DNA of 64,000 nucleotides from Pseudanabaena sp. ELA607 (GCA_037130765.1 JBAXSK010000001.1:7200-71199); one strand, 5' to 3'. Positions 14,102 to 27,785 are shown, numbered from the stretch's first letter. Program-made: numbers and translations. The notes: generated by a model from the letters alone, not told the origin.

Positions 14102-15865
14102 TTACCAAATTCCTAATAGAGTCAGATTCGTATCAGCGTAGTCTATATTTAAGATTTGACGATAGGGCATTAAACTTTGCTGCATACTTTCGAGAGATAC
14201 TTCTTGGTGATGCAGTGTCTGAATGAGATGATCTTTAATTGGTTTGAGGACTAGGCGGATCTGCATGGCGCGAATTGTATCAGGGGCATAGTCTTCGACC
14301 AAAACATGACTACGCATCAGATTAAGTTTGTTGGGATGGGGATGTATGACTAGTTCCGTAATCTCGCCGGTGACTGCTTCGATAAATTGCCGACTGACAT
14401 ACTTCATCACCACCGGTTCTAGGGCAAATTCCACTTCTCCAGCTTCAACATTTTTTTCAATTAATGACCGCCACCGTAAAGATTCTAAGGCATCAATTAA
14501 GGCTGAACCTGCCTGCGAATGCAGATCACGCCTGAGATTAACCAGAGAACTAGCTCTTCTTTTTAGGGCTAACCAATATAATACTGACCGCTCTAAATCT
14601 GAGAGTCGTGCCACCTGCTGATATAATAAACTGCGTAACACATCTCCTAAAGCCAATCCGGTTTGTTGCAGAAATTCCGTTACATTTCCATTAAATAATT
14701 CTTGAATAGTAGTAGCCACAATGCGTAATGCTGCCGGATTGCCGCGATATTGCTGCACTAGGGCGGTTAAACCATTAGTGCCAATCCCTTCAGATGTAGG
14801 AAATGCCGTAAAACCCCGCGCTTGTAATAGAGCTAAAGCCCCTGGTTGCCCTAATCCTGATAAGCGATAGGCTCTGGTTGCACCATCGGGAGTTTGGGCG
14901 GCGGAAATTTCCTTGGGTTGTTCGCGACTCAGGATAATCACACAACTTTGATGTCTTTCGGAACCAACTCGTTCTAATAATTCCCCATAACCATCGCATC
15001 CGGGACGATAGGAGCCAACTAATTCCCCATCTTGTAAAATGGTTTCCATATCGTCTAAAATAATCAGGCAGCGCTTGTGCCGTAATTGCTCAATCAAAGT
15101 TGAAACTGTCTGGGATGGCAGTTTATCTTTCGTCAAACCTTGTAATAATTCGGTAATTATTTGCGTGGTGGGTTGTGCGCCTCTTAAGGAACGCCAAATA
15201 CACACTTCAAAAGCCGGAACATTGGCATTGAGTGGAGGACTACCAGAAATCAAACTTTCCACTAGTTTGACCGCTAAACTAGTTTTGCCAATGCCCCCCA
15301 TGCCGCAAATGGAGACGAGTCGCGCTCGATCCGCCATAATCCAGCGCTGTAAAATTGATAAGTCAGCTTCTCGTCCGTAGAGATGGGGAATATCTGGCGC
15401 TTCTCCCCAATCCACTAGCACCCCACGAGAGGCTCCGCTAGATCCCACCGCTGGCATGGCTGCGGCAACAGTAGTCTGACGGGCATTTTCTGGTAAAACG
15501 GAATGCTGTCCTGAAGCAAAGCCATCGCCGACACTGGGAACCCGTTGTAAGCGATAACCTGCCGCATCTAACCAATCAGGCACTTTTTCCCAACGTAATG
15601 TATTGAGGGGGTGCTGGGTCAGGGCTTCAATCATGCGGTACAAGCCTTTATTGATTTCAACCCGCAAGGCTCCCGAAGTCCACGATAGTTTAAAGGCAAT
15701 TTGTCCGGGACGATAGCGGCACAACAACCCGCGTAAACAAGCTCGTTCAAAGGGTTTAAGTTCTTTACCATCGGCGGTTTCTAAGTCATGATAAAGCCGC
15801 GCCAAATCCCATTGCTGGGCAGCTTCAGCAAAAAATTGCTCAAAGTGGTCAAGATCATTGCTCAT
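14102..15865 (-). CDS. STAND NTPase: N-terminal LuxR/sigma-r4-like HTH plus NB-ARC domain, no C-terminal repeat sensor
   Basis: HTH-like segment LKPFERACLRGLLCRYRPGQIAFKL...RVEINKGLYRMIEAL. NB-ARC motifs are GMGGIGKTSLAV (Walker A), LIILDDME (Walker B), VIILSREQP and GNPAALRIVA. Confidence 0.8.
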   Translation of the reverse strand: MSNDLDHFEQFFAEAAQQWDLARLYHDLETADGKELKPFERACLRGLLCRYRPGQIAFKLSWTSGALRVEINKGLYRMIEALTQHPLNTLRWEKVPDWLDAAGYRLQRVPSVGDGFASGQHSVLPENARQTTVAAAMPAVGSSGASRGVLVDWGEAPDIPHLYGREADLSILQRWIMADRARLVSICGMGGIGKTSLAVKLVESLISGSPPLNANVPAFEVCIWRSLRGAQPTTQIITELLQGLTKDKLPSQTVSTLIEQLRHKRCLIILDDMETILQDGELVGSYRPGCDGYGELLERVGSERHQSCVIILSREQPKEISAAQTPDGATRAYRLSGLGQPGALALLQARGFTAFPTSEGIGTNGLTALVQQYRGNPAALRIVATTIQELFNGNVTEFLQQTGLALGDVLRSLLYQQVARLSDLERSVLYWLALKRRASSLVNLRRDLHSQAGSALIDALESLRWRSLIEKNVEAGEVEFALEPVVMKYVSRQFIEAVTGEITELVIHPHPNKLNLMRSHVLVEDYAPDTIRAMQIRLVLKPIKDHLIQTLHHQEVSLESMQQSLMPYRQILNIDYADTNLTLLGIW

Positions 15866-18039: not shown

Positions 18040-18116
18040 TTGACGCGATCACCATATAATTCGCCTAGGTTCAATTCGTGCAGTGTTGGCTGGATATTAT
18101 TTAAAGTTGTATTCAT
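18040..18116 (-). pseudogene. 5' remnant of a nucleotidyltransferase (MNT) gene
   Basis: It reads MNTTLNNIQPTLHELNLGELYGDR..., matching the N-terminus of the intact 19975..20343 protein (MNPTLNNIQPTLHELKLGLKELYGDR). It then runs into the ccaA upstream region. Confidence 0.55.
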
Positions 18117-18190
18117 TTGATCGCTCCTTGCTCAAAGGCTTGATTAACTCTCTCAATTTGTTTCAGCACTTCCATTTTGTGCATCAAAAA

Positions 18191-18633
18191 CTAGAATTCT
18201 TGACTTGGCAAAATTGGTTCAATTAACTTGAATAGTTCAGGAATATCTTTGTTTGTAGTTTTCCAAACTTCATTTAAGTCAGTATCATCATAATCATGGA
18301 TTAAGTTGTCTCTCATGCCTGCCATTACAGCCCTTGCCTGATTTACTCAGTACACAGCTAGACTTCAAGCTTTCGATCTTTCTGGTGCAAAATCATACTT
18401 AATGATTGAGGAATAGGCTGTAATGAGCAAGGAATGTTTAAATTCTGTTTTCTAAATTCCTGAGAAATCCTCTTAGTAGCTTCACCAATAATCAAGAGTT
18501 GATACAAAATAGATGACTGAGTTTTATCATCATCCATAAACTCACTTTTGTTCAAGCCCTGCTTATATTCTAGGATTTTATAAGCAGCTTTAGAGATGTC
18601 AATTAGTGATGTAACGTCTTTATTTGTTGACAT
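18191..18633 (-). pseudogene. hepT: HepT (DUF86/HEPN) toxin gene disrupted by a roughly 100-bp insertion
   Basis: The N-terminal part is ORF 18358..18633. The C-terminal part, AGMRDNLIHDYDDTDLNEVWKTTNKDIPELFKLIEPILPSQEF, is in another frame at 18191..18320. It carries the RxxxxHxY motif seen in paralog 21091..21444. Confidence 0.7.
18323..18425. mobile_element. MITE-like insertion with 10-bp perfect terminal inverted repeats inside hepT
   Basis: CATTACAGCC at 18323..18332 and GGCTGTAATG at 18416..18425 bracket about 100 bp. This segment separates the two halves of the HepT reading frame. Confidence 0.5.
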
Positions 18634-18682
18634 AAAACGTCTTTATTTGTTGACATAAAACGTCTTTATTTGTTGACATAAA
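18614..18682. repeat. perfect 23-bp tandem repeat x3 (acgtctttatttgttgacataaa)
   Basis: Three identical units at 18614, 18637 and 18660. Each unit contains both the MNT stop and the HepT start (ATGTCAACAAATAAAGACG on the coding strand). Confidence 0.9.
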
Positions 18683-18992
18683 TTGTTTGTGCGGTATTCA
18701 AAATTTCTTTTTTGCGTATCCAATTATGACTTCGCTCGATCGCGTTTTTATTAATTAGATCAACTTTCCTATTCATAATTAAAGTTAATTCTTGCTGCAT
18801 CTGGACGCGATCAAATAAGCTCCAGTCAGATTTTTCAGAAAACTTCACTAGGCAATCGATGTCACTATTTGAGCCGAAGTCATCGCGCAGAACGGAACCA
18901 AAAAGGGCAAATTCGACGATCTGCCAACGCTGACAAAATTCGCGGATCTGTGGCATGGGGAGGTTAATATTTGTGACTATTTGAGTATTCAT
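18666..18992 (-). CDS. mntA: MNT-family nucleotidyltransferase antitoxin
   Basis: The motif FGSVLRDDFGSNSDIDCLV (GS...DxD) is present. It is a close paralog of 21416..21757. Confidence 0.85.
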   Translation of the reverse strand: MNTQIVTNINLPMPQIREFCQRWQIVEFALFGSVLRDDFGSNSDIDCLVKFSEKSDWSLFDRVQMQQELTLIMNRKVDLINKNAIERSHNWIRKKEILNTAQTIYVNK

Positions 18993-19047
18993 TGTGTGTT
19001 TCCTCCAAAGGCTTGTCTAACTTGCAATAAAACTTACGATCATTTTT

Positions 19048-19317
19048 CTAAGGGAAGTAACGATAAAATTCTTTGCGGTGTAATGTGCGGATGACTTCTA
19101 CTGTATTGCCAGAAATTTCTATGCCAATGCGATAGTCACCAACTCTAATGCGGTAACGGGTTGAATATCCTTGCATGGCTTTTATGTTCGATAGTTCCTC
19201 TAAGTTCTTAGCTTCAGGCAAAGTTGTAAAGGCAATTTCATAGATGCGTTGATATACTGATGAGCCTTTCAGGTTTTTGAGGTCTTTTAAAAATGACTGG
19301 CGATACTTTACTTCCAT
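19048..19317 (-). CDS. RelE/ParE-family type II toxin
   Basis: 89 aa. The pattern YRIRVGDYRIGIEISGNTVEVIRTLHRKEFY is typical of RelE/ParE toxins. It sits 14 nt downstream of a small antitoxin-like ORF. Confidence 0.8.
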   Translation of the reverse strand: MEVKYRQSFLKDLKNLKGSSVYQRIYEIAFTTLPEAKNLEELSNIKAMQGYSTRYRIRVGDYRIGIEISGNTVEVIRTLHRKEFYRYFP

Positions 19318-19331
19318 TTTAGTCTTCCAAT

Positions 19332-19553
19332 TTAATCCTCTAAAAAGGCTAGAGCTTCGGCAGGGGAGTAAAGAGGAGTGTTTTTACCTTCATCCATTGC
19401 TTTATTGAGACAATAATCTTCTATGGCTTCGCTAAGATTTTCTAGAGAGATGTTGTCGGTGGGTAAAAGTTGCCGCCAAATCTCGATGGGAATGACAACT
19501 GCGGTGGGCTGTCCTTCTTGGTTAGTTATATACTCAAGGTTTAATAGGGGCAT
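19332..19553 (-). CDS. putative antitoxin partnered with the RelE/ParE toxin
   Basis: 73-aa acidic protein immediately upstream of the toxin. Its N-terminus resembles Phd/YefM-style antitoxins (QPTAVVIPIEIWRQL). Confidence 0.6.
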   Translation of the reverse strand: MPLLNLEYITNQEGQPTAVVIPIEIWRQLLPTDNISLENLSEAIEDYCLNKAMDEGKNTPLYSPAEALAFLED

Positions 19554-19649
19554 AACATTTACCTTGGTGAATGCTTTTCATAAAATCTGCTTTCATTATA
19601 TCAAAAGTTTTTGTGTTACTCATGCGCTTAACGATTCTCTTAAATCGTG

Positions 19650-20015
19650 TCAATTTTCTCTCTGCTCAAAAAACTCTTCGGCATAAACGATCTGTTCAGC
19701 CGCTTTGTCAAGAGTTACTTCATTTGATTTTCCGTAGTCGCCCATTTGTCTTAGCTCCTGTGCTTCAATTAAGTAGCGATGAAAATGAGTTGGCACTTCG
19801 CCTTCTTTAACGAATTCGCGACCAAAACCTGAGATCACAGCAGAGTGTTTTGAATAGGAAAGATTTTTGTCTAACAAGATGGCAGAAACCACATAGAACA
19901 TGGTGTAGTAACTTCGGGCGGCGGAGTATCCTGCATATCCATTATTCAGAAGTAATTTGGCGGCGGCGAGGCTATCACGTGCTTGTTGTAAGAGTTCGTC
20001 TTTGTCTGTGGTCAT
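19650..20015 (-). CDS. HEPN domain protein (toxin-like partner of the upstream nucleotidyltransferase)
   Basis: 121-aa helical protein with ELRQMGDYG near the C-terminal third. It overlaps the nucleotidyltransferase gene by about 40 nt. Confidence 0.8.
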   Translation of the reverse strand: MTTDKDELLQQARDSLAAAKLLLNNGYAGYSAARSYYTMFYVVSAILLDKNLSYSKHSAVISGFGREFVKEGEVPTHFHRYLIEAQELRQMGDYGKSNEVTLDKAAEQIVYAEEFFEQREN

Positions 20016-20343
20016 AGAGGTTAATTCCTTCTCGGCGGATGTTTAATAATAATGGGCTAATGTGATTTAGATATTCTTTTTCATTGATAAATAGACAGCT
20101 TACAACGGTGTCATATTGGAGAGAGATTTTTGAGATGATTTCGCCTGTGTTACTAATTTCATCGCAGGGTTTAACTTTACCGTGCAGGACTACAAGTATA
20201 TCAATATCAGAGTCTGGGGTTGCTTCGTTTCTTGCTTGAGAGCCATAGAGCGTTATGTAGGCTAGGCGATCACCATATAGCTCCTTTAAGCCTAGTTTTA
20301 ATTCGTGCAATGTTGGCTGGATATTATTTAAAGTTGGGTTCAT
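19975..20343 (-). CDS. nucleotidyltransferase domain protein (MNT-like antitoxin)
   Basis: The motif YGSQARNEATPDSDIDILVV (GS...DxD) is present. Confidence 0.85.
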   Translation of the reverse strand: MNPTLNNIQPTLHELKLGLKELYGDRLAYITLYGSQARNEATPDSDIDILVVLHGKVKPCDEISNTGEIISKISLQYDTVVSCLFINEKEYLNHISPLLLNIRREGINLYDHRQRRTLTTST

Positions 20344-20380: not shown

Positions 20381-20683
20381 CTATTTATCTAGAAATGCTA
20401 GAGCTTCAGTGTGTGAATAAATTGGACTATTTCTACCTTCATCAATTACTGTGCCTTTCATTCTTAAAGCATCAGCACAAAACTCTATCTCACCTTCCCA
20501 GTAAATATATCGACCTTTTTTGTCTAAACTGACTTTAGCAAAAAAGTTAGGTTCTTGAAGTGGTTGAAATACCTTGCCTTGTTGAATCACTGGGATGAAA
20601 TCAGCTACAACGCTTATTCCATCAGAATATTCTAGAACTAACTTGAAGTTCTCAATTGGCGAGACTCGACTGATTTTATACAT
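20381..20683 (-). CDS. DUF2442 domain protein
   Basis: The likely true start is MYKISRVSPIENFKLVLEYSDG at 20683; the tracked 134-aa form would overlap the upstream gene. The pattern is DUF2442-like, and it sits 11 nt after a DUF4160 gene. Confidence 0.7.
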   Translation of the reverse strand: MYKISRVSPIENFKLVLEYSDGISVVADFIPVIQQGKVFQPLQEPNFFAKVSLDKKGRYIYWEGEIEFCADALRMKGTVIDEGRNSPIYSHTEALAFLDK

Positions 20684-20694
20684 GGTTATTTTCT

Positions 20695-20955
20695 CTAATC
20701 TAAAGGTTCTAGCTTGTGAGGTGATTTTCCTGATTGACAAAGTTCCCAGTTTTCCATTAGTTCCTGTTGATGTAAGGCAATCCATTCTAAAAACATCGAT
20801 CGCACTCGATTAGGAACCTTGCCTTTGATGATGGAGATCGGTGAGATACCGACAATGATTTCATGTTCGCCATAGGATGCATGGATATGTGGTGGGGTAG
20901 GATCGTCATAGAATACCCTGATTGTAATTCCATAAAATTCTGAAATGATTGGCAT
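20695..20955 (-). CDS. DUF4160 domain protein
   Basis: The N-terminus MPIISEFYGITIRVFYDDPTPPHIHASYGEHE is the typical DUF4160 signature. Confidence 0.8.
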   Translation of the reverse strand: MPIISEFYGITIRVFYDDPTPPHIHASYGEHEIIVGISPISIIKGKVPNRVRSMFLEWIALHQQELMENWELCQSGKSPHKLEPLD

Positions 20956-20986
20956 AAGCTGTTTTTGATTGAAGTTATTCCCATTG

Positions 20987-21057
20987 TATCAAAAGTCTTT
21001 GTGTTACTCATGCGCTTAACTATTCTCTTAAATCGCATCAACTATTTGAGTATTCAT
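20987..21057 (-). pseudogene. collapsed remnant of a two-gene cassette
   Basis: It reads MNTQIVDAI-stop, which resembles the start of 22225..22635 (MNTQLVDSI). This is followed by ...VKR-ATGA-MSNTKTFDTM. The 49-nt stretch 20987..21035 recurs at 19599..19647. Confidence 0.4.
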
Positions 21058-21090
21058 TGTATGTTTCCCCCAAAGGCTTTGTAAATGATA

Positions 21091-21444
21091 TCAATCAAGT
21101 TCTGCGTTATCTTCTGTTGGTAAAAGCGGTAGTATAAATTCTAGAAGATTAGGGATTTGTGAATTTGCAACTTGCCAAGTTAAGTTCAAATCAACTTGAT
21201 TATAATCGTGTATTAGTTTATCGCGCATTCCCGCGATTTGCTTCCATAGTATTTCTGGATGGGCTTCTCGAAATTCAGGCGATAGGCGTTTGACGATTTC
21301 TCCCAAAATCGCAATTTCGTATACAACCGAAAAGTGAATGCGCTTTTCTGCTAAAAATTGTTGCTTGGTAGCTCCTTCCATCAGTTCAGCAATATTAGAA
21401 CAGACTGTGGCAATATCAAGCAGATAGGCTGGATCTCGTTTCAT
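21091..21444 (-). CDS. hepT: HepT (DUF86, HEPN-type) toxin
   Basis: GMRDKLIHDY (RxxxxHxY) motif. It overlaps the upstream MNT gene by 29 nt. Confidence 0.85.
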   Translation of the reverse strand: MKRDPAYLLDIATVCSNIAELMEGATKQQFLAEKRIHFSVVYEIAILGEIVKRLSPEFREAHPEILWKQIAGMRDKLIHDYNQVDLNLTWQVANSQIPNLLEFILPLLPTEDNAELD

Positions 21445-21757
21445 AAATCACCTGTGCAGTATTTAAAATTGCTTTGCGTCGAATCCAATTTGGGCTGTCT
21501 ATAACGGCTTGCTTGCTAACTAAGTCAACTTTTCGATGAAATATATCTTCTAGTTGCCATTCCATTGTTACCAAGTCTAGAAGACTATTTTGTGAGTTAG
21601 GAGCAAATACGACCAAGCAATCGATGTCACTATCGGGTCGAAAGTCATCGCGCAGGACGGAACCAAAGAGGGCAAATTCGACGATCTGCCAACGCTGACA
21701 AAATTCTCGAATCTGTGACATGGGGAGATTAATGTTTGTGATTAATTGAGTATTCAT
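21416..21757 (-). CDS. mntA: MNT-family nucleotidyltransferase antitoxin
   Basis: The motif FGSVLRDDFRPDSDIDCLV is present. It is a paralog of 18666..18992. Confidence 0.85.
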   Translation of the reverse strand: MNTQLITNINLPMSQIREFCQRWQIVEFALFGSVLRDDFRPDSDIDCLVVFAPNSQNSLLDLVTMEWQLEDIFHRKVDLVSKQAVIDSPNWIRRKAILNTAQVIYETRSSLSA

Positions 21758-21799
21758 TTCATCGCTCCTTGCTCAAAGGCTTTGTTAATCAATTTTAGT

Positions 21800-22228
21800 C
21801 TAAGTTTCTTTCGGAGGATGCCAACCTGCGCTAATCCATTCTCGTCTAACCATCAATGCACAGGTATTGTTAAGTTGCAAAGCCAGAACTGTAGCGCGTC
21901 CACAGGCTGTACGCCCGACAATATATGTACCATCTTCTGACCAAGTAAAATGTCGATGCCATTTTTGGGTGCGAGGGTTGAATAACTGCACTAAACGATC
22001 TGTTTCTGGATCTTGTCTATGGGTTTGAGTTCCTTTAAAGTTGTTGCATAATCTACAGGCGAGCCATAGGTTCTTTTCGTCATCCGTTCCGCCTTGAGAT
22101 TTGGGAATAATGTGATCAATTTCTAGCATTCCCAAAACATATTTTTGCTGACTACGACAATAGCCACAGCAATCTTTTGCTGCTGTCCGAACCCTAGCTC
22201 TAGTTTCTTCGGAAATCTTGCTACTCAT
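21800..22228 (-). CDS. HNH endonuclease
   Basis: CCGYCRSQ...EIDHIIPKSQGG...NLWLACRLCNNFKG matches the HNH/zinc-hook pattern. Confidence 0.85.
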   Translation of the reverse strand: MSSKISEETRARVRTAAKDCCGYCRSQQKYVLGMLEIDHIIPKSQGGTDDEKNLWLACRLCNNFKGTQTHRQDPETDRLVQLFNPRTQKWHRHFTWSEDGTYIVGRTACGRATVLALQLNNTCALMVRREWISAGWHPPKET

Positions 22229-22635
22229 GCGCTTAATGGTTGTCTTAGTCCACGTTTGACGCTTTCATTTAAGGCTTGGGCTTTGCGAAGTAGTCCTGCT
22301 TGATAAATTTCCATTAACATTTCTAGTTCGGATTGCTCGTCTGTGGTCAGGGTTCTTTCTTGTTGGGTTTGTAAGAGTTGACTTAATCTTTGATCTTGAG
22401 ATGGTTCCATCTGAAGTTCGGTGAGGGTGATTATTTGTTGATCGCTTAGGGTTGATAGGTGGGCTAAGTTTTGGTTAGGTTCTTGTTTGGGGAATTCGGG
22501 TTGAGACGGGGATATTTGGGTGTTGGGAATTGGGCTGAAGAGGTCAGTTAGTAACTTGTCTCTTAGTAATGAGCGATCTTCTTCGGGGAGGGACTTGATT
22601 AACTGGGCGATCGAATCGACTAATTGAGTATTCAT
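22225..22635 (-). CDS. hypothetical acidic/Gln-rich protein translationally coupled to the HNH nuclease
   Basis: 136 aa. Its stop overlaps the HNH start in ATGA. The C-terminal helical segment is LTTDEQSELEMLMEIYQAGLLRKAQALNESVKRGL. No family recognised. Confidence 0.5.
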   Translation of the reverse strand: MNTQLVDSIAQLIKSLPEEDRSLLRDKLLTDLFSPIPNTQISPSQPEFPKQEPNQNLAHLSTLSDQQIITLTELQMEPSQDQRLSQLLQTQQERTLTTDEQSELEMLMEIYQAGLLRKAQALNESVKRGLRQPLSA

Positions 22636-22668
22636 TGAATATTTCCTCCTATGGTTTTTTTAACACGA

Positions 22669-25206
22669 TCAATTTGTTCCACTTTTATGATTTATTTGAA
22701 GACTTTTTCGCCTTTCAATTTCAGAGATCGGCAGCAAAAGATTTGCTCGTCTTTTTGCTTTCATTTCTTGACTGGCGTTTGGTGGATCGGTAAGATTTAG
22801 GCATTCAGCTAAAATTGTATTGGCATTGTAATAATTCTTTAATGCTTGCCTTGCTTCAGAAGTCATTCCGTTTTTTGGGTTTTGCCAGTCATGCCCGATC
22901 TGACGATGTTCAATCATAACTTTTCGTAGGTCTTCAGCCCATAAATGACAAGCTTCTGAACCATCCCATTGATCGCCATCGATTCCAAATGATTGCGGTA
23001 TATGCTGCTCCAAATTTTTAAGAGAATTCTCTAATTCGTGATATCCCAAATATTCTGCTAATTCAATTGCTTTTATTATATAGCTTCGGTTGTGAGGAAG
23101 TCTCGGTGCATTTTCATGAAGTTGAAGGCGATCATTATTTGATTTTGAATAATCCATTGCTCTTGGTAAATCTATATCTAATTGACATTCAACTAGACGA
23201 TCAAGCATTATGTAAAGACCATCTCGTGTTTCCTTTTCTATTTCAAGATTCTTTTTAGCTGTAATTGACAATATCCCCTCCAATTGATTGTCTATAAGCA
23301 ATTCATTTCCTATAGAATTTGGGTTAGAACAATTTGTATCTGTATAATCATTTAAAATGTCTTCTATAGTTATTGCTCTAATTGTTGCCTCCCCATACTT
23401 TGTTTTTCCTTCAATAGTCTGAGATTTTTTGAGTAGGCTTAATAGTATTTCTTGTAAATATGGATATCCCACAATTATGGCAGTGATTGTATCTTCCATT
23501 TGCTGTAAAAAACTATTTGGCTCGGATAACATTTCAACTGTAAACAAGAAAATTTCACGCCATTGGCGATCACCAAGATTCATAAACAGTTTCTGAAGAT
23601 CTTCAGTACCATTTTCAACACGATTCGCAATATCTCTCGCAACAAAATATTCATGCCAAGTCAAATGTCCAAAATAGTATTCATCATGATCTATAGTTAG
23701 CAATCCACTTCTATTAGTAATTTGGTCGTGCAATAGCTCTCTTGTACAATTTTCCTCATCACTCAAACCTTGCAAGCTGTTAATGCCAAGAAATTCATTT
23801 AGGTATCGTTGCAATTCATATTCTAAAAAATCTTTCTTCTCTTTAAATGTTTGTCTTGCTAAATACAAAACAAAATCATTAAAGCTATTATTTGATTTAG
23901 ATGTAAAATTTTTATTTTTATTCCACTCATGTACTAAAACATCAAACGCATACTCATAAAGCTGATAGCGTTTATCGGCAAGTTTTCCATTCTTAAAAAA
24001 TGTCTTACAAATTAAAGTGAGATTAATGGGGGTTTGAGCCAAGGCTTTGATTTGAGATTTATTTTTATCTTGAATTGCAGAAATTAATTCATTAGATGTT
24101 CTATCAGTATAGTGTTTATCTTTATATTCTTGATAATATTGTTTAATAAAGCTCTCAATAGCTACATCATCCAAATCAACAATATTAATATACAAGTATC
24201 TAGAATCATCTCGTTTTGCTGATGCCGAACGACAGGTAATCACAGCTTTATTTCGAGGGTATTTGGTTAAAATAAATTCATCAATGTATTTTTCTACTTT
24301 CTGCCTGTAATCCATTGACACTTCATCTAGACCATCTAATAAAATTAATAGATTTCCTTTATTTAAAATATACTCTATTTCTTCTGGTGAAACTCCTAAC
24401 GGGTTCCAACTGTTGACAATCACATCAAATATTTTTGATTTTTCTGTACTCTGCCAATCTTCAGTCCTAAGTTTAAAGTAAAAAGGTACTAAATCAGGAA
24501 ATAGTTCACCTGTAATACAGTGCATTGCTAAGAATTTCAGAGAATTTGTCTTACCTGCACCTGCTTTTCCTAGCAAAGCGATCGGTTTTATGATTGTTTT
24601 ACTTTGCTCGTAGTGGCTTTTTAGACAATCAATCAAAGGCATACGCCTCTTAGAGTTTGAGTCGCAAGAAATTTCAACATGAAAATCCTTAACATTTCTA
24701 TGTTGACCATCAGCAAATCGAATATCCTCACACCGTAGCTCAATCCAATCTCTAACTTTGTCTCGCACATTTTGGACTATGTTATTTCCATGACTATTGC
24801 GATCGCTTCCAAGTGTTGTTACTTCTTGAGTGCGATTGGGAGTAAGGATATTTTGGGAATTAGTTGGGGGGTGGGGGCGGCTTAATGTTTCGCTATCAAC
24901 TCCATCAGGACTAATATCGGGGTGAACAAAATCTGGCATATGTTGCCGAAATAAATAAACCAAATTATCCTGATGTGAATTTCCACGTCCAAATTTTATG
25001 CCGAAGTGATTGCACACCTCTTTCAGTCTGTGAGATACGATAGTAGTATCTTCAGGATTACATACATCTTGTCTTTTGCGTATAGCTTTTGCTATTTCTT
25101 TCTTAGTTTTTCCATCACGGATCAAAAGATTTACAAAAGTCAATAATTTGTCATTGACAGGTTTTTGCAATTCTTCAAACTTAGCTAAAAACTGCTGTTT
25201 GTCCAT
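22669..25206 (-). CDS. NACHT-family STAND NTPase with N-terminal HTH-like module
   Basis: Walker A LLGKAGAGKTNS and Walker B LLILLDGLDEV. The N-terminal roughly 90 aa (KKEIAKAI...IVSHRLKEVCNHFGI) resemble the HTH heads of 14102..15865 and 55675..57408. The C-terminal roughly 400 aa are helical with no obvious repeats. Confidence 0.85.
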   Translation of the reverse strand: MDKQQFLAKFEELQKPVNDKLLTFVNLLIRDGKTKKEIAKAIRKRQDVCNPEDTTIVSHRLKEVCNHFGIKFGRGNSHQDNLVYLFRQHMPDFVHPDISPDGVDSETLSRPHPPTNSQNILTPNRTQEVTTLGSDRNSHGNNIVQNVRDKVRDWIELRCEDIRFADGQHRNVKDFHVEISCDSNSKRRMPLIDCLKSHYEQSKTIIKPIALLGKAGAGKTNSLKFLAMHCITGELFPDLVPFYFKLRTEDWQSTEKSKIFDVIVNSWNPLGVSPEEIEYILNKGNLLILLDGLDEVSMDYRQKVEKYIDEFILTKYPRNKAVITCRSASAKRDDSRYLYINIVDLDDVAIESFIKQYYQEYKDKHYTDRTSNELISAIQDKNKSQIKALAQTPINLTLICKTFFKNGKLADKRYQLYEYAFDVLVHEWNKNKNFTSKSNNSFNDFVLYLARQTFKEKKDFLEYELQRYLNEFLGINSLQGLSDEENCTRELLHDQITNRSGLLTIDHDEYYFGHLTWHEYFVARDIANRVENGTEDLQKLFMNLGDRQWREIFLFTVEMLSEPNSFLQQMEDTITAIIVGYPYLQEILLSLLKKSQTIEGKTKYGEATIRAITIEDILNDYTDTNCSNPNSIGNELLIDNQLEGILSITAKKNLEIEKETRDGLYIMLDRLVECQLDIDLPRAMDYSKSNNDRLQLHENAPRLPHNRSYIIKAIELAEYLGYHELENSLKNLEQHIPQSFGIDGDQWDGSEACHLWAEDLRKVMIEHRQIGHDWQNPKNGMTSEARQALKNYYNANTILAECLNLTDPPNASQEMKAKRRANLLLPISEIERRKSLQINHKSGTN

Positions 25207-25305: not shown

Positions 25306-25761
25306 ATGACTCAGGCAATAGTAAAACAAACACTTTATGACACCGATCTTAATCTGTGGCTAGAGACAGTAATCGCTCAATTGCGATCCGGTGATTTGCA
25401 AAATGTTGATGTTGAAAATTTGATAGAGGAGTTAGAGGGTTTGGCAGGTAGAGATAAGCGGGAGGTTGCTAGTTGTCTGAAAACTCTTATTGAGCATCTT
25501 CTCAAGCGTTGTTATGTGGACATGCCCAACGAATTTAGAGGATGGGAAGTAACAATTAGAACTCAAAGATTTGAGTTAGAACAAATTCTCGAACAATCGC
25601 CAAGTCTCAAGCGTCACTTTGTCGAAAGCTTTGATAAATGTTTCAAGGTTGCAGTTAAAGATGTACAAGGGAATTATCCACAGTATCAATTACCCGATAC
25701 ATGGCAATTTGGATGTGATATCGACTCCATGTTAAATCAGGAATTTTGGCATAAGGGATAA
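25306..25761 (+). CDS. DUF29 family protein
   Basis: LYDTDLNLWLE...VENLIEELEGLAGRDKREVASCLKTLIEHLLK is the typical DUF29 pattern. Confidence 0.75.
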   Translation: MTQAIVKQTLYDTDLNLWLETVIAQLRSGDLQNVDVENLIEELEGLAGRDKREVASCLKTLIEHLLKRCYVDMPNEFRGWEVTIRTQRFELEQILEQSPSLKRHFVESFDKCFKVAVKDVQGNYPQYQLPDTWQFGCDIDSMLNQEFWHKG

Positions 25762-27015: not shown

Positions 27016-27525
27016 CTAATCCAAAATCGCCAAACTGTGAGGATTTTCAAGCTTCAGCAAACGGCTTTTCTTAATCAAATTTCCGTAGCAAATAATTAAC
27101 TTTTTTTGTTGATGAGCAGAAGTCGCGATCGCATATTCACTTTCTGGCAAATCAATCTGCACTTGTCGCTTAGCGATCGTATCCTGAACAGTAATTTTTC
27201 CCAATCTTGCATTACGAGGGCGATAGAGCTTGATCACATCTCCTTCCACAGTAGAAACCATCGCATCAAAATTTGGGATCTCCTGACCTGAAACCGCCGC
27301 ATAAAGCACATCAGGATCTAAATCAGCATTGTTTGCCCATTGAATAGTTCCCAATTCAGGATCTATATATACACTCTCAAAAAAATTTCTATCTTTTAAT
27401 GGCGCAAAAACACCAGTAAACTCAATCATTTTTGACAAGTCAACAACTCCCTCCATGCCATCTTCAAACTGCAAATGGAGTTTGTAATCCGTAAATGGTT
27501 TCACCATCAAAATATCTTGTAGCAT
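27016..27525 (-). CDS. DUF2442 domain protein with C-terminal extension
   Basis: The N-terminal half, VKPFTDYKLHLQFEDGMEGVVDLS...GTIQWANNADLDPDVLY, is DUF2442-like. It has an extra tail of about 85 aa. Confidence 0.7.
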   Translation of the reverse strand: MLQDILMVKPFTDYKLHLQFEDGMEGVVDLSKMIEFTGVFAPLKDRNFFESVYIDPELGTIQWANNADLDPDVLYAAVSGQEIPNFDAMVSTVEGDVIKLYRPRNARLGKITVQDTIAKRQVQIDLPESEYAIATSAHQQKKLIICYGNLIKKSRLLKLENPHSLAILD

Positions 27526-27527
27526 AA

Positions 27528-27785
27528 TTATTCCAAAGGTTCAATTGTCTTTAAAGGTTTATTTTTCGTTGCTAGTTCCCAGTTCTCTAAAAGCTCTGCT
27601 TGATGTAAATTCGCCCACTCGACAACTAATTTCTTTACTTTTGACGGTATTTGCCCAGCTAACAAACTTGCAGGAGAAGTACGAATCAGTGCTTTTTGAC
27701 CATTGTAACGAACACTGATAATAACACCTTGATTTTCTATGCGATCGCCTAATTTCCCTCTCATCTGGCAAACCCTCTGGCGCAC
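27528..27785 (-). CDS. DUF4160-like protein lacking the canonical N-terminus
   Basis: The C-terminal part, GQIPSKVKKLVVEWANLHQAELLENWELATKNKPLKTIEPLE, parallels 20695..20955. The N-terminal HIH region is replaced by sequence from the 81-bp repeat. Confidence 0.55.
   Translation of the reverse strand: MRQRVCQMRGKLGDRIENQGVIISVRYNGQKALIRTSPASLLAGQIPSKVKKLVVEWANLHQAELLENWELATKNKPLKTIEPLE

Follow-up and report, generated by a model that had tools for sequence, protein, structure and literature searches.

Organization of the locus

We analyzed a 64,000-nucleotide stretch of DNA from Pseudanabaena sp. ELA607 (hereafter, the window), and focused on three adjacent genes, g1, g2, and g3, located between positions 21,800 and 25,206. 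g1 codes for a protein of the signal transduction ATPases with numerous domains (STAND) class carrying a NACHT NTPase domain, g2 codes for a small acidic protein, and g3 codes for an HNH nuclease. An earlier note, made from the sequence alone, had proposed that these genes form a split sensor/effector defense operon. The open reading frame (ORF) listing places all three genes on the minus strand and reproduces exactly the layout described in that note: the genes are co-directional and tightly packed, with the sizes given below, a 33-nt gap between the g1 stop and the g2 ATG (22636..22668), and an ATGA overlap shared by the g2 stop and the g3 start. A Shine-Dalgarno sequence (GGAGG) is located 9 nt 5' of the g2 ATG.

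22669..25206, minus strand: g1, 845-aa chimeric STAND protein (Pfam NACHT and NCH2)
24922..25206, minus strand: g1 head, probable LuxR/GerE- or sigma-r4-like helix-turn-helix (HTH) domain (head profile)
22225..22635, minus strand: g2, 136-aa antitoxin-like protein (family alignment, AlphaFold2 [AF2] model)
21800..22228, minus strand: g3, 142-aa HNH nuclease, putative toxin (Pfam HNH)

The predicted domains were largely confirmed. The g1 translation contains the Walker A (GKAGAGKT) and Walker B (LLILLDGLDEV) motifs, and Pfam places a NACHT domain between residues 208 and 362 (E = 1.3e-15; score 58.1 bits, cutoff 26.7). The C-terminal part of about 400 residues had been described as helical and lacking recognizable repeats, and it proved to hold a catalogued domain, NCH2, at residues 725-826 (E = 2.2e-15; score 57 bits, cutoff 27). 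g1 is therefore ordered as an HTH-like head (residues ~1-95), a linker rich in P, T, N, and Q, the NACHT domain, and a helical C-terminal region with NCH2. The protein matches P0121 of Pseudanabaena sp. ELA607 at 100 % identity (P and L numbers denote the proteins and loci that we compared). The descriptions of g2 as acidic and Gln-rich (pI 4.66, 14 % Gln) and of g3 as an HNH nuclease (Pfam E = 2.1e-14, catalytic core intact) were both borne out; g3 is basic (pI 9.08).

g2 and g3 are paired across phyla without a STAND neighbor

The earlier proposal tied g2 and g3 to a NACHT neighbor. We examined the genes around their homologs. A g2-seeded scan using one genome per species gave 80 loci, of which 79 were informative and one left no room for a downstream gene. 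At 43 of the 79 loci there is an intact g3-type HNH gene whose start lies between -3 and +12 nt relative to the stop of g2; the HNH gene is disrupted at 16 and missing at 20. An HNH gene or its remnant is next to g2 at 59 loci, and g2 persists with the HNH gene disrupted or absent at 36. HNH decay with survival of g2 is the asymmetry expected of toxin-antitoxin modules, and we therefore counted it in favor of an antitoxin reading of g2. When we seeded with HNH, all six loci (Chloroflexi, Acidobacteria, and Cyanobacteria) contained a g2-family ORF of 125-144 aa upstream with a 4-nt overlap, and the neighbors of these six pairs were unrelated, ordinary genes, such as those for a peptidase M20, a nitroreductase, and a CN-hydrolase. 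Overall, the pair was found in Cyanobacteria, Chloroflexi, Acidobacteria, and Myxococcota.

No further gene is conserved around the pair across the g2-seeded loci, and neither a methylase nor any other gene for self-protection forms an exception. Just 27 of 67 loci have an upstream ORF in the same orientation as g2, with gaps mostly of 50-270 nt, which points to a promoter belonging to the pair. A STAND NTPase of any kind was present within ~6 kb at only 3 of the 69 general-type g2 loci. With this count and the unrelated neighbors of the HNH-seeded pairs, the proposed tie to a NACHT neighbor is largely unsupported. We also observed an NB-ARC STAND gene 70 nt to ~1.5 kb downstream of a free-standing, Nostocales-type g2-HNH pair with a ribbon-helix-helix (RHH) type g2 at L149 (2996-4477), L019, and L024; these neighbors are probably background.

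Phage records contained no relevant g3 homolog, and a single plasmid copy of the pair was found, on an Aulosira plasmid, where it is annotated as "hypothetical protein" and "HNH endonuclease". Because there is no phage homolog and only one plasmid copy, an origin in mobile elements is unsupported in these collections. In searches of the open-access literature, we found no description of the g2-HNH pair or of a STAND-g2-HNH system, nor of a type II module, described or tested, in which the g3-type HNH family serves as the toxin.

g2 resembles an antitoxin and g3 retains the nuclease core

The g2 family consists of proteins of about 129 aa, and in the family alignment the C-terminal half is strongly conserved. 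Most members start with an RHH-like sequence (ITLPDEVYQRA), which Pfam recognizes as RHH_5 in two of them. In its place, the g2 of the window begins with an N-terminal module, MNTQLVDS.Q.I.SLP.EE, that has no Pfam family, as is the case for g2 itself. The AF2 model of g2 (pLDDT 69) has a helical hairpin at residues 3-33, a disordered P/Q-rich linker at 33-56, and helices at 65-128. The last of these form a three-helix C-terminal domain that is modeled at pLDDT 80-91 and is specific to the g3-type HNH family. The N-terminal module recurs at the front of small proteins whose C-terminal halves are unrelated and whose genes precede those of PIN, MazF-like, and DUF433-system toxins. Judged from the family alignment and the model, g2 looks like an inhibitor of the antitoxin type, with a swappable N-terminal module and an HNH-specific C-terminal domain.

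Among metagenome loci (L121-L138), we observed that the 30-aa module MNTQLVDS.Q.I.SLP.EE..L..KL is a promiscuous head of many cyanobacterial antitoxin-like proteins. Four of 16 genes with this module (L122, L123, L127, and L130, in two families) lie 70-100 nt downstream of NB-ARC/TPR (tetratricopeptide repeat) STAND genes.

The g3-type HNH family is large and well conserved, comprising over 1000 clusters that are 65-75 % identical across phyla, and the g3 of the window is 96-99 % identical to copies in other Pseudanabaena. Two CxxC pairs and the catalytic and Zn-binding residues are invariant across the family and complete in g3, which has every family-invariant residue (C21/C24, H39, N53, C58/C61, N62, and the C-terminal GRATV..L.LNN..GWHPP). 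Its best PDB sequence matches are the HNH domains of Cas9 and IscB.

The NACHT protein is a chimera and its closest orthologs lack an intact pair

The earlier note described the head of g1 as a LuxR/sigma-r4-like HTH. Pfam has no match in the g1 head itself. A profile of homologous heads matches the LuxR-type DNA-binding domains of RhlR at 6e-6 and GerE at 2e-4; when P0219, a homolog that itself matches Pfam GerE at 1.5e-7, was left out of the profile, the values were 6e-4 and 0.07, respectively. AF2 models the head as a five-helix domain (pLDDT 73), and Foldseek found no significant match for this model, the best being VraR and SigmaE region 4, both with E > 5. The head is therefore probably an HTH domain, predicted at the profile level.

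The head of g1 is 91 % identical to that of a TPR-type STAND protein, P0127, while the body is 79-81 % identical to NACHT proteins bearing a different head. The region of the NACHT body is markedly AT-rich (31.5-34.5 % GC at 23001-25000, against ~40-45 % in g2-HNH and the rest of the window), which is consistent with import of the body by recombination. Similar mosaics are found in the relatives. g1-like heads sit on TPR bodies at L008, L015, and L101; L011-like heads sit on TPR bodies at L011 and L091 and, more distantly, on NACHT bodies at L001-L004; and the L102 head resembles an XRE-type HTH by eye. Taken together, STAND genes at this locus draw on at least three types of HTH-like head and on two NTPase/sensor bodies, NACHT-NCH2 and AAA-TPR, joined via the conserved linker ..RP..PTNPQNIP.PE.IPEL..LEFIGRD. 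Among the TPR-type STAND genes followed by a Pseudanabaena-type g2, the bodies are only 30-75 % identical, with better conservation in the last ~70 residues. At the fixed locus of L097/L099/L102, identity ranges from 50 to 100 % in the body and stays at 87-100 % in the tail.

The earlier note counted an absence of nucleases beside homologous NACHT genes among the things that would speak against its proposal, and this is largely what we observed. The relatives with 72-81 % identity are the orthologs at L001-L005 and one further place represented without DNA. At L001-L005, there is no g2-HNH, no nuclease, and no junction element (see below) downstream of the NACHT gene. A multi-HTH protein of 379-386 aa is encoded 40-60 nt downstream, with about five HTH repeats (HTH_23, HTH_7, and Sigma70_r4; e.g. 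L002 8525-9685), and at L001 it has shrunk to a 97-aa remnant. We considered this protein (HTH379) as an alternative effector and rejected it, as it consists of HTH repeats, is neither a nuclease nor a DDE transposase, and has no obvious role of that kind. The next ortholog, with 58 % identity and the same DUF29 flank as the window, is that of Pseudanabaena CAN_BIN31 (L006, the same locus as L017). Its gene order is NACHT, MNT, HepT, g2, HNH, and the last two genes are pseudogenes: g2 carries an in-frame TAA, and HNH an in-frame TAG and a truncation. Ortholog P0122 is uninformative about downstream genes, as its contig ends 48 nt past the NACHT gene. We saw the NACHT/g2/HNH trio as such only in this genome; the closest NACHT orthologs (58-81 %) lack an intact g2-HNH downstream.

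The DUF29 gene serves as a marker of the orthologous locus in other Pseudanabaena strains, and it is also found upstream of the STAND gene at L006/L017, L008, L009, L015, L100, L101, and L145.

25306..25761, plus strand: divergent DUF29 gene (Pfam DUF29, 1e-36)

In relatives (L006 and L145), DUF29 and the STAND gene are separated by an inserted HicAB pair.

g2-HNH is the first cassette of an array joined by copies of a STAND 3' end

The neighborhood had been called dense with toxin-antitoxin genes, and Pfam agrees. An array of co-directional toxin-antitoxin cassettes extends from 18.1 to 25.2 kb, with g2-HNH as cassette 1. A junction element of ~35-60 nt precedes the cassettes and carries the ribosome-binding site (RBS), the ATG, and the first codons. 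Its core is ACAAAGCCTTTGGAGGAAACATACA-ATGAATAC, or a GAGCAA variant, and it includes the inverted repeat CAAAG-C-CTTTG. The window contains five copies, all on the minus strand (22628-22660, 21750-21785, 21050-21082, 18985-19017, and 18109-18144), compared with none in 30 shuffles. They precede g2, three MNT starts, and a dead stub encoding MNTQIVDAI*. In an ungapped scan, the element occurred one to four times in Pseudanabaenales-type loci (L006-L017 and L087-L106) and never in other loci. Rfam had no match at 17-27 kb of the window. The array is laid out as follows:

22628..22705, minus strand: junction element 1, spanning the last g1 codons, the 33-nt spacer, the RBS, and the first g2 codons (decayed copy of a TPR-STAND 3' tail)
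21750..21785, minus strand: junction element 2, located after the stop of HNH and before the start of MNT (matches the element variant, 34/36)
21091..21757, minus strand: cassette 2, MNT (21416..21757; Pfam NTP_transf_2, 2.9e-17) and HepT (21091..21444; HepT-like, 8.9e-22)
20381..21082, minus strand: cassette 3, DUF4160 (20695..20955) and DUF2442 (20381..20785) (Pfam, repeats D3/D5)
21050-21082, minus strand: junction element 3, of cassette 3 (element scan)
21031-21057, minus strand: dead g2 stub MNTQIVDAI*, starting at 21057, in front of DUF4160-DUF2442
21002-21030, minus strand: scar 1 of a g2-end/HNH-start junction (TAAGCGCATGAGTA) (repeats D3/D5)
19650..20343, minus strand: MNT-HEPN cassette (Pfam)
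19614-19642, minus strand: scar 2 of a g2-end/HNH-start junction (TAAGCGCATGAGTA), preceding RelB-ParE (repeats D3/D5)
19048..19553, minus strand: RelB-like/ParE cassette (Pfam)
18985-19017, minus strand: junction element 4, with MNT and truncated HepT (18358..18992) (Pfam, element scan, tail-like translation)
18109-18144, minus strand: junction element 5, with a 44-aa MNT stub (element scan, tail-like translation)

Translated in frame, each junction copy reads as a decayed STAND C-terminus, ending in ..KQIERVNKAFGGNIQ* or ..RVNQAFEQGAKQ*. For element 1, the shifted-frame translation is VEQIDRVKKTIGGNI, which compares with the TPR-STAND tail APKQIERVNKAFRGNIQ; for element 2, the frame-1 translation is KLINKAFEQGAM, which compares with RVNQAFEQGAKQ. 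In the g1-g2 spacer region, 34 of the last 45 nt are identical to L008/L012, whereas the maximum among 20,000 random 45-mers was 25/45. We had considered that the 33-nt spacer is what specifically remains of a TPR-STAND gene that was replaced. This idea was dropped, as the same sequence precedes four other cassettes of the window, and the spacer is instead a repeated STAND-tail junction.

The g2 stub and the two scars are the footprints of deleted g2-HNH cassettes. The order of cassettes varies between strains, and for this reason recombination between tail copies suffices to explain a toxin-antitoxin cassette behind a STAND gene. The array ends at ~18.1 kb, before a carbonic-anhydrase-like gene (identified by eye). 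Just outside the array, the window encodes a second STAND protein of 587 aa (14102-15865, minus strand; Pfam NB-ARC, 9e-10), whose N-terminal region resembles another HTH-type head by eye. The other side of the NACHT gene has toxin-antitoxin-type genes as well, namely a second DUF4160-DUF2442 pair (27016-27785, minus strand) and the DUF29 gene.

A model for capture of an autonomous module

Based on these results, our preferred model, held with moderate confidence, is that g2-HNH is an autonomous, previously unannotated toxin-antitoxin-like module that was captured and now forms the first cassette downstream of a chimeric HTH-NACHT gene. g3 would be a basic HNH DNase toxin and g2 its acidic cognate inhibitor, likely binding g3 through the conserved C-terminal helical domain, and the two are translationally coupled through the ATGA. 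In Pseudanabaenales, the module would have lost the RHH-like N-terminus of free-standing versions and become a promoter-proximal cassette, located where an HTH-headed STAND gene has its 3' end. The window represents one permutation of a co-directional array: g2-HNH, MNT-HepT, DUF4160-DUF2442, MNT-HEPN, RelB-ParE, and MNT-HepT. The junctions consist of the decayed last 8-19 STAND codons followed by an RBS and an ATG, and we infer that recombination among these tail copies shuffles, deletes, and inserts cassettes.

The NACHT protein is a chimera that joins a NACHT-NCH2 body to a head and a linker from the local TPR-STAND family. In this model, it most likely acts as an independent nucleotide-binding leucine-rich-repeat receptor (NLR)-like sensor with the DNA-binding head as its output. 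Neither partner would need the other, the NACHT protein going without an HNH effector and the HNH nuclease without a NACHT protein. g1 and g2-g3 are probably co-transcribed, and their adjacency would result from cassette capture at the STAND 3' end.

Alternative explanations for the adjacency of STAND and g2-HNH genes

Several observations weigh against this model, most of them from a lineage set of genome and metagenome loci with a Pseudanabaena-type g2 (61-95 % identity; 26 informative loci). Within this set, g2 follows an HTH-headed STAND gene by 0-33 nt at 18 of 26 loci, and the adjacency spans two diverged clades in which g2 is ~62 % identical and the STAND bodies are 30-75 % identical. 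At L008, L011, and L102, g2 starts within an ATGA that also contains the stop of the STAND gene. At L097, L099, and L102, a lone STAND-g2-HNH trio stands between ATP-grasp-like and ABC-transporter genes with no array. All STAND-linked g2 proteins lack the RHH-like start, and the STAND heads are HTH-like in at least three sequence types, which would fit a division of labor between the two proteins. In addition, no structural precedent for g2 was found, as neither a profile search of PDB sequences nor a Foldseek run with the AF2 model yielded more than non-significant helical matches. Finally, there is no terminator or convincing promoter between g1 and g2, in a promoter/terminator scan that was not above shuffles; the scan neither separates nor joins the two genes, and it was set aside as a test of their linkage.

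One alternative is a true three-component system in Pseudanabaenales, with the HTH-headed STAND protein as sensor/regulator, g2 as a labile inhibitor, and HNH as the effector. The STAND head would have taken over the regulatory role that free-standing g2 proteins have in their RHH domain, in the manner of tripartite toxin-antitoxin systems such as omega-epsilon-zeta, and ligand- or phage-triggered oligomerization of the STAND protein would alter transcription of the operon or sequester g2, freeing the nuclease. Beyond the frequent, sometimes overlapping adjacency, the isolated trios, the restriction of RHH loss to STAND-linked g2, and the constant HTH-like nature of otherwise differing heads, this explanation gains from the fact that the head and g2-HNH are kept while the NTPase/sensor body is swapped (the window compared with P0127 and L008). 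Two other families of MNTQLVDS antitoxin plus PIN toxin are also located 70-100 nt behind NB-ARC/TPR STAND genes (L122/L123 and L127/L130), and DNA-binding "adaptor" heads on bacterial NACHT proteins are listed in the literature (10.1101/2022.07.19.500537). Nevertheless, the pair is autonomous everywhere outside the lineage, and the coupling is dispensable in both directions within it. An intact STAND gene is found without HNH at L008, L015, and L101 and outlives HNH decay at L006, while an intact g2-HNH pair without a STAND gene is found at L013, behind a RelB-like gene and a deleted ParE. Moreover, MNT-HepT can intervene between the STAND gene and g2 (L015 and L017), the NACHT orthologs at L001-L005 have no nuclease, and the junction repeats supply a purely recombinational cause for the adjacency. 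PADLOC and NCBIfam recognize no known system. We regard the three-component system as less likely than the autonomous module, though with real support from the lineage-specific adjacency, the isolated trios, and the RHH loss in STAND-linked g2; a lineage-specific regulatory link between the STAND protein and g2-HNH has a similar, lower probability. What remains of the sensor/effector operon of the earlier note is the tight coupling of g2 to HNH, the inhibitor-like character of g2, and the STAND adjacency in this lineage. The three-gene synteny that the note suggested checking across cyanobacteria was seen only here; STAND-g2 adjacency does recur in Pseudanabaenales, with a partner that is TPR-type (AAA_16/nSTAND plus TPR) at 17 of the 18 loci and has a NACHT body only in this window.

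A broader version of this idea is that HTH-headed STAND proteins of Pseudanabaenales, with either a TPR or a NACHT body, lead swappable multi-effector operons. The STAND protein would sense an invader and control the stack of toxin-antitoxin cassettes through its DNA-binding head or its conserved tail, with g2-HNH as the primary cassette and new cassettes joining by recombination at copies of the STAND 3' tail. We consider this version unlikely. If true, it would represent an NLR-like sensor whose effector array is exchangeable and genetically separate, together with a new mechanism of cassette capture.

The pair might also act as a two-subunit, sequence-directed nuclease (restriction-like, nicking, or homing) rather than as a toxin and antitoxin, in which case g2 would target DNA, through an RHH domain in most homologs, and tether HNH by its C-terminal domain. 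The RHH-like start of most g2 homologs would suit such a role, as would the unusual conservation of HNH across phyla, which suggests a constrained cellular target or partner, and its resemblance to the HNH domains of Cas9 and IscB, which act within targeting complexes. We find this improbable: the g2 of the window lacks the RHH domain, its N-terminal module is common to antitoxins of PIN and MazF-like toxins, and no methylase or self-protection gene is conserved nearby. Furthermore, HNH is often lost while g2 is kept, and a targeting subunit should not outlive its nuclease. Lastly, the adjacency could be meaningless and the small genes decaying remnants without a current function, since the island holds stubs, scars, and truncated cassettes and the relatives carry pseudogenized copies. 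Against this explanation are the intact g2 and g3 ORFs of the window, the complete set of invariant residues in g3 and its near identity to other Pseudanabaena copies, and the strong Shine-Dalgarno sequence before g2, and we give it little credence.

The autonomous-module model suggests a likely role for a very widespread, unannotated gene pair, in which HNH always follows a "hypothetical" protein of 125-145 aa, as a toxin-antitoxin-like family with a DNase toxin. It also follows that adjacency to a STAND/NLR gene in a variable island is weak evidence of a sensor-effector link, given that a recombinational explanation is available here. The locus is also a testable case in which a toxin-antitoxin module may have come under an NLR-like regulator. 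The shuffling of heads, bodies, and tails of NACHT and TPR STAND proteins at one locus is a clear example of bacterial NLR-like diversification.

Comparison with known systems

The earlier note had suggested running PADLOC on the three proteins, and no known defense system emerged: PADLOC and NCBIfam recognized none in the trio or in the TPR-STAND proteins, no PADLOC model matched g1, and the L008/L011 STAND proteins gave generic TPR matches only. For comparison with bacterial NACHT (bNACHT) proteins we used Kibby et al. (bioRxiv 10.1101/2022.07.19.500537) and Kaur, Burroughs, Iyer, and Aravind (eLife 2020/2021). In this literature, DNA-binding/HTH heads are a listed "adaptor" class that may activate a transcriptional response (10.1101/2022.07.19.500537), and bNACHT genes are reported to be rarely in operons. 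g1 follows their tripartite plan, with a probable adaptor or effector at the N-terminus, the NACHT NTPase in the middle, and NCH2 as the helical sensor at the C-terminus, and Cyanobacteria are rich in such paralogs. g1 differs in that its head and linker come from the local TPR-STAND family and in that it falls below the cutoff of the NCBIfam EruA model (30.5 bits against 1000). Likewise, unlike Avs, other antiviral STAND proteins with a fused effector, and the EruA protein of Erebus, g1 reaches no curated model of a characterized antiviral STAND protein in these searches.

In Septu, and also in retron-Septu, the HNH protein PtuB is the partner of the PtuA ATPase. g3 aligns partially to many PADLOC PtuB models (best E = 2.1e-13) and shares with PtuB a C-terminal extension behind the HNH core. 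However, g3 misses the NCBIfam PtuB threshold (16.7 bits against 150), there is no PtuA-type ATPase among the ORFs of the island, and the partner is a 136-aa helical protein. Type II toxin-antitoxin modules include tripartite ones with a separate regulator (omega-epsilon-zeta) and the MNT-HepT and RelB-ParE pairs next to g2-g3. Like these modules, g2-g3 is bicistronic, translationally coupled, and independent of its neighbors, and the putative toxin decays while the putative antitoxin is kept. The upstream protein, g2, is small and acidic, has a disordered part, and seems to combine a swappable N-terminal module with a toxin-specific C-terminal domain, and g3 is a basic downstream enzyme. The pair differs in that g2 has no Pfam family and in that the toxicity of g3 and its neutralization are predicted from these features.

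The E-type colicins are secreted toxins whose HNH DNases pair with small, acidic, all-helical Im immunity proteins. g2-g3 has the same combination of a basic HNH DNase and a small acidic helical partner presumed to block it by direct binding. In contrast to colicin E/Im, the two genes stand in the opposite order and the setting is intracellular, and g2 has no match by sequence or by fold. The superintegrons of Vibrio are chromosomal cassette arrays rich in toxin-antitoxin cassettes. The window resembles these arrays in its compact, co-directional, apparently promoterless cassettes, its repeated junctions, and its strain-variable order. We noticed no integrase-like ORF at 14-29 kb, where no attC model search was made. 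The repeat of the window differs from the attC hairpin in being a copy of a STAND 3' end with an RBS and an ATG, and the mechanism is presumably homologous recombination.

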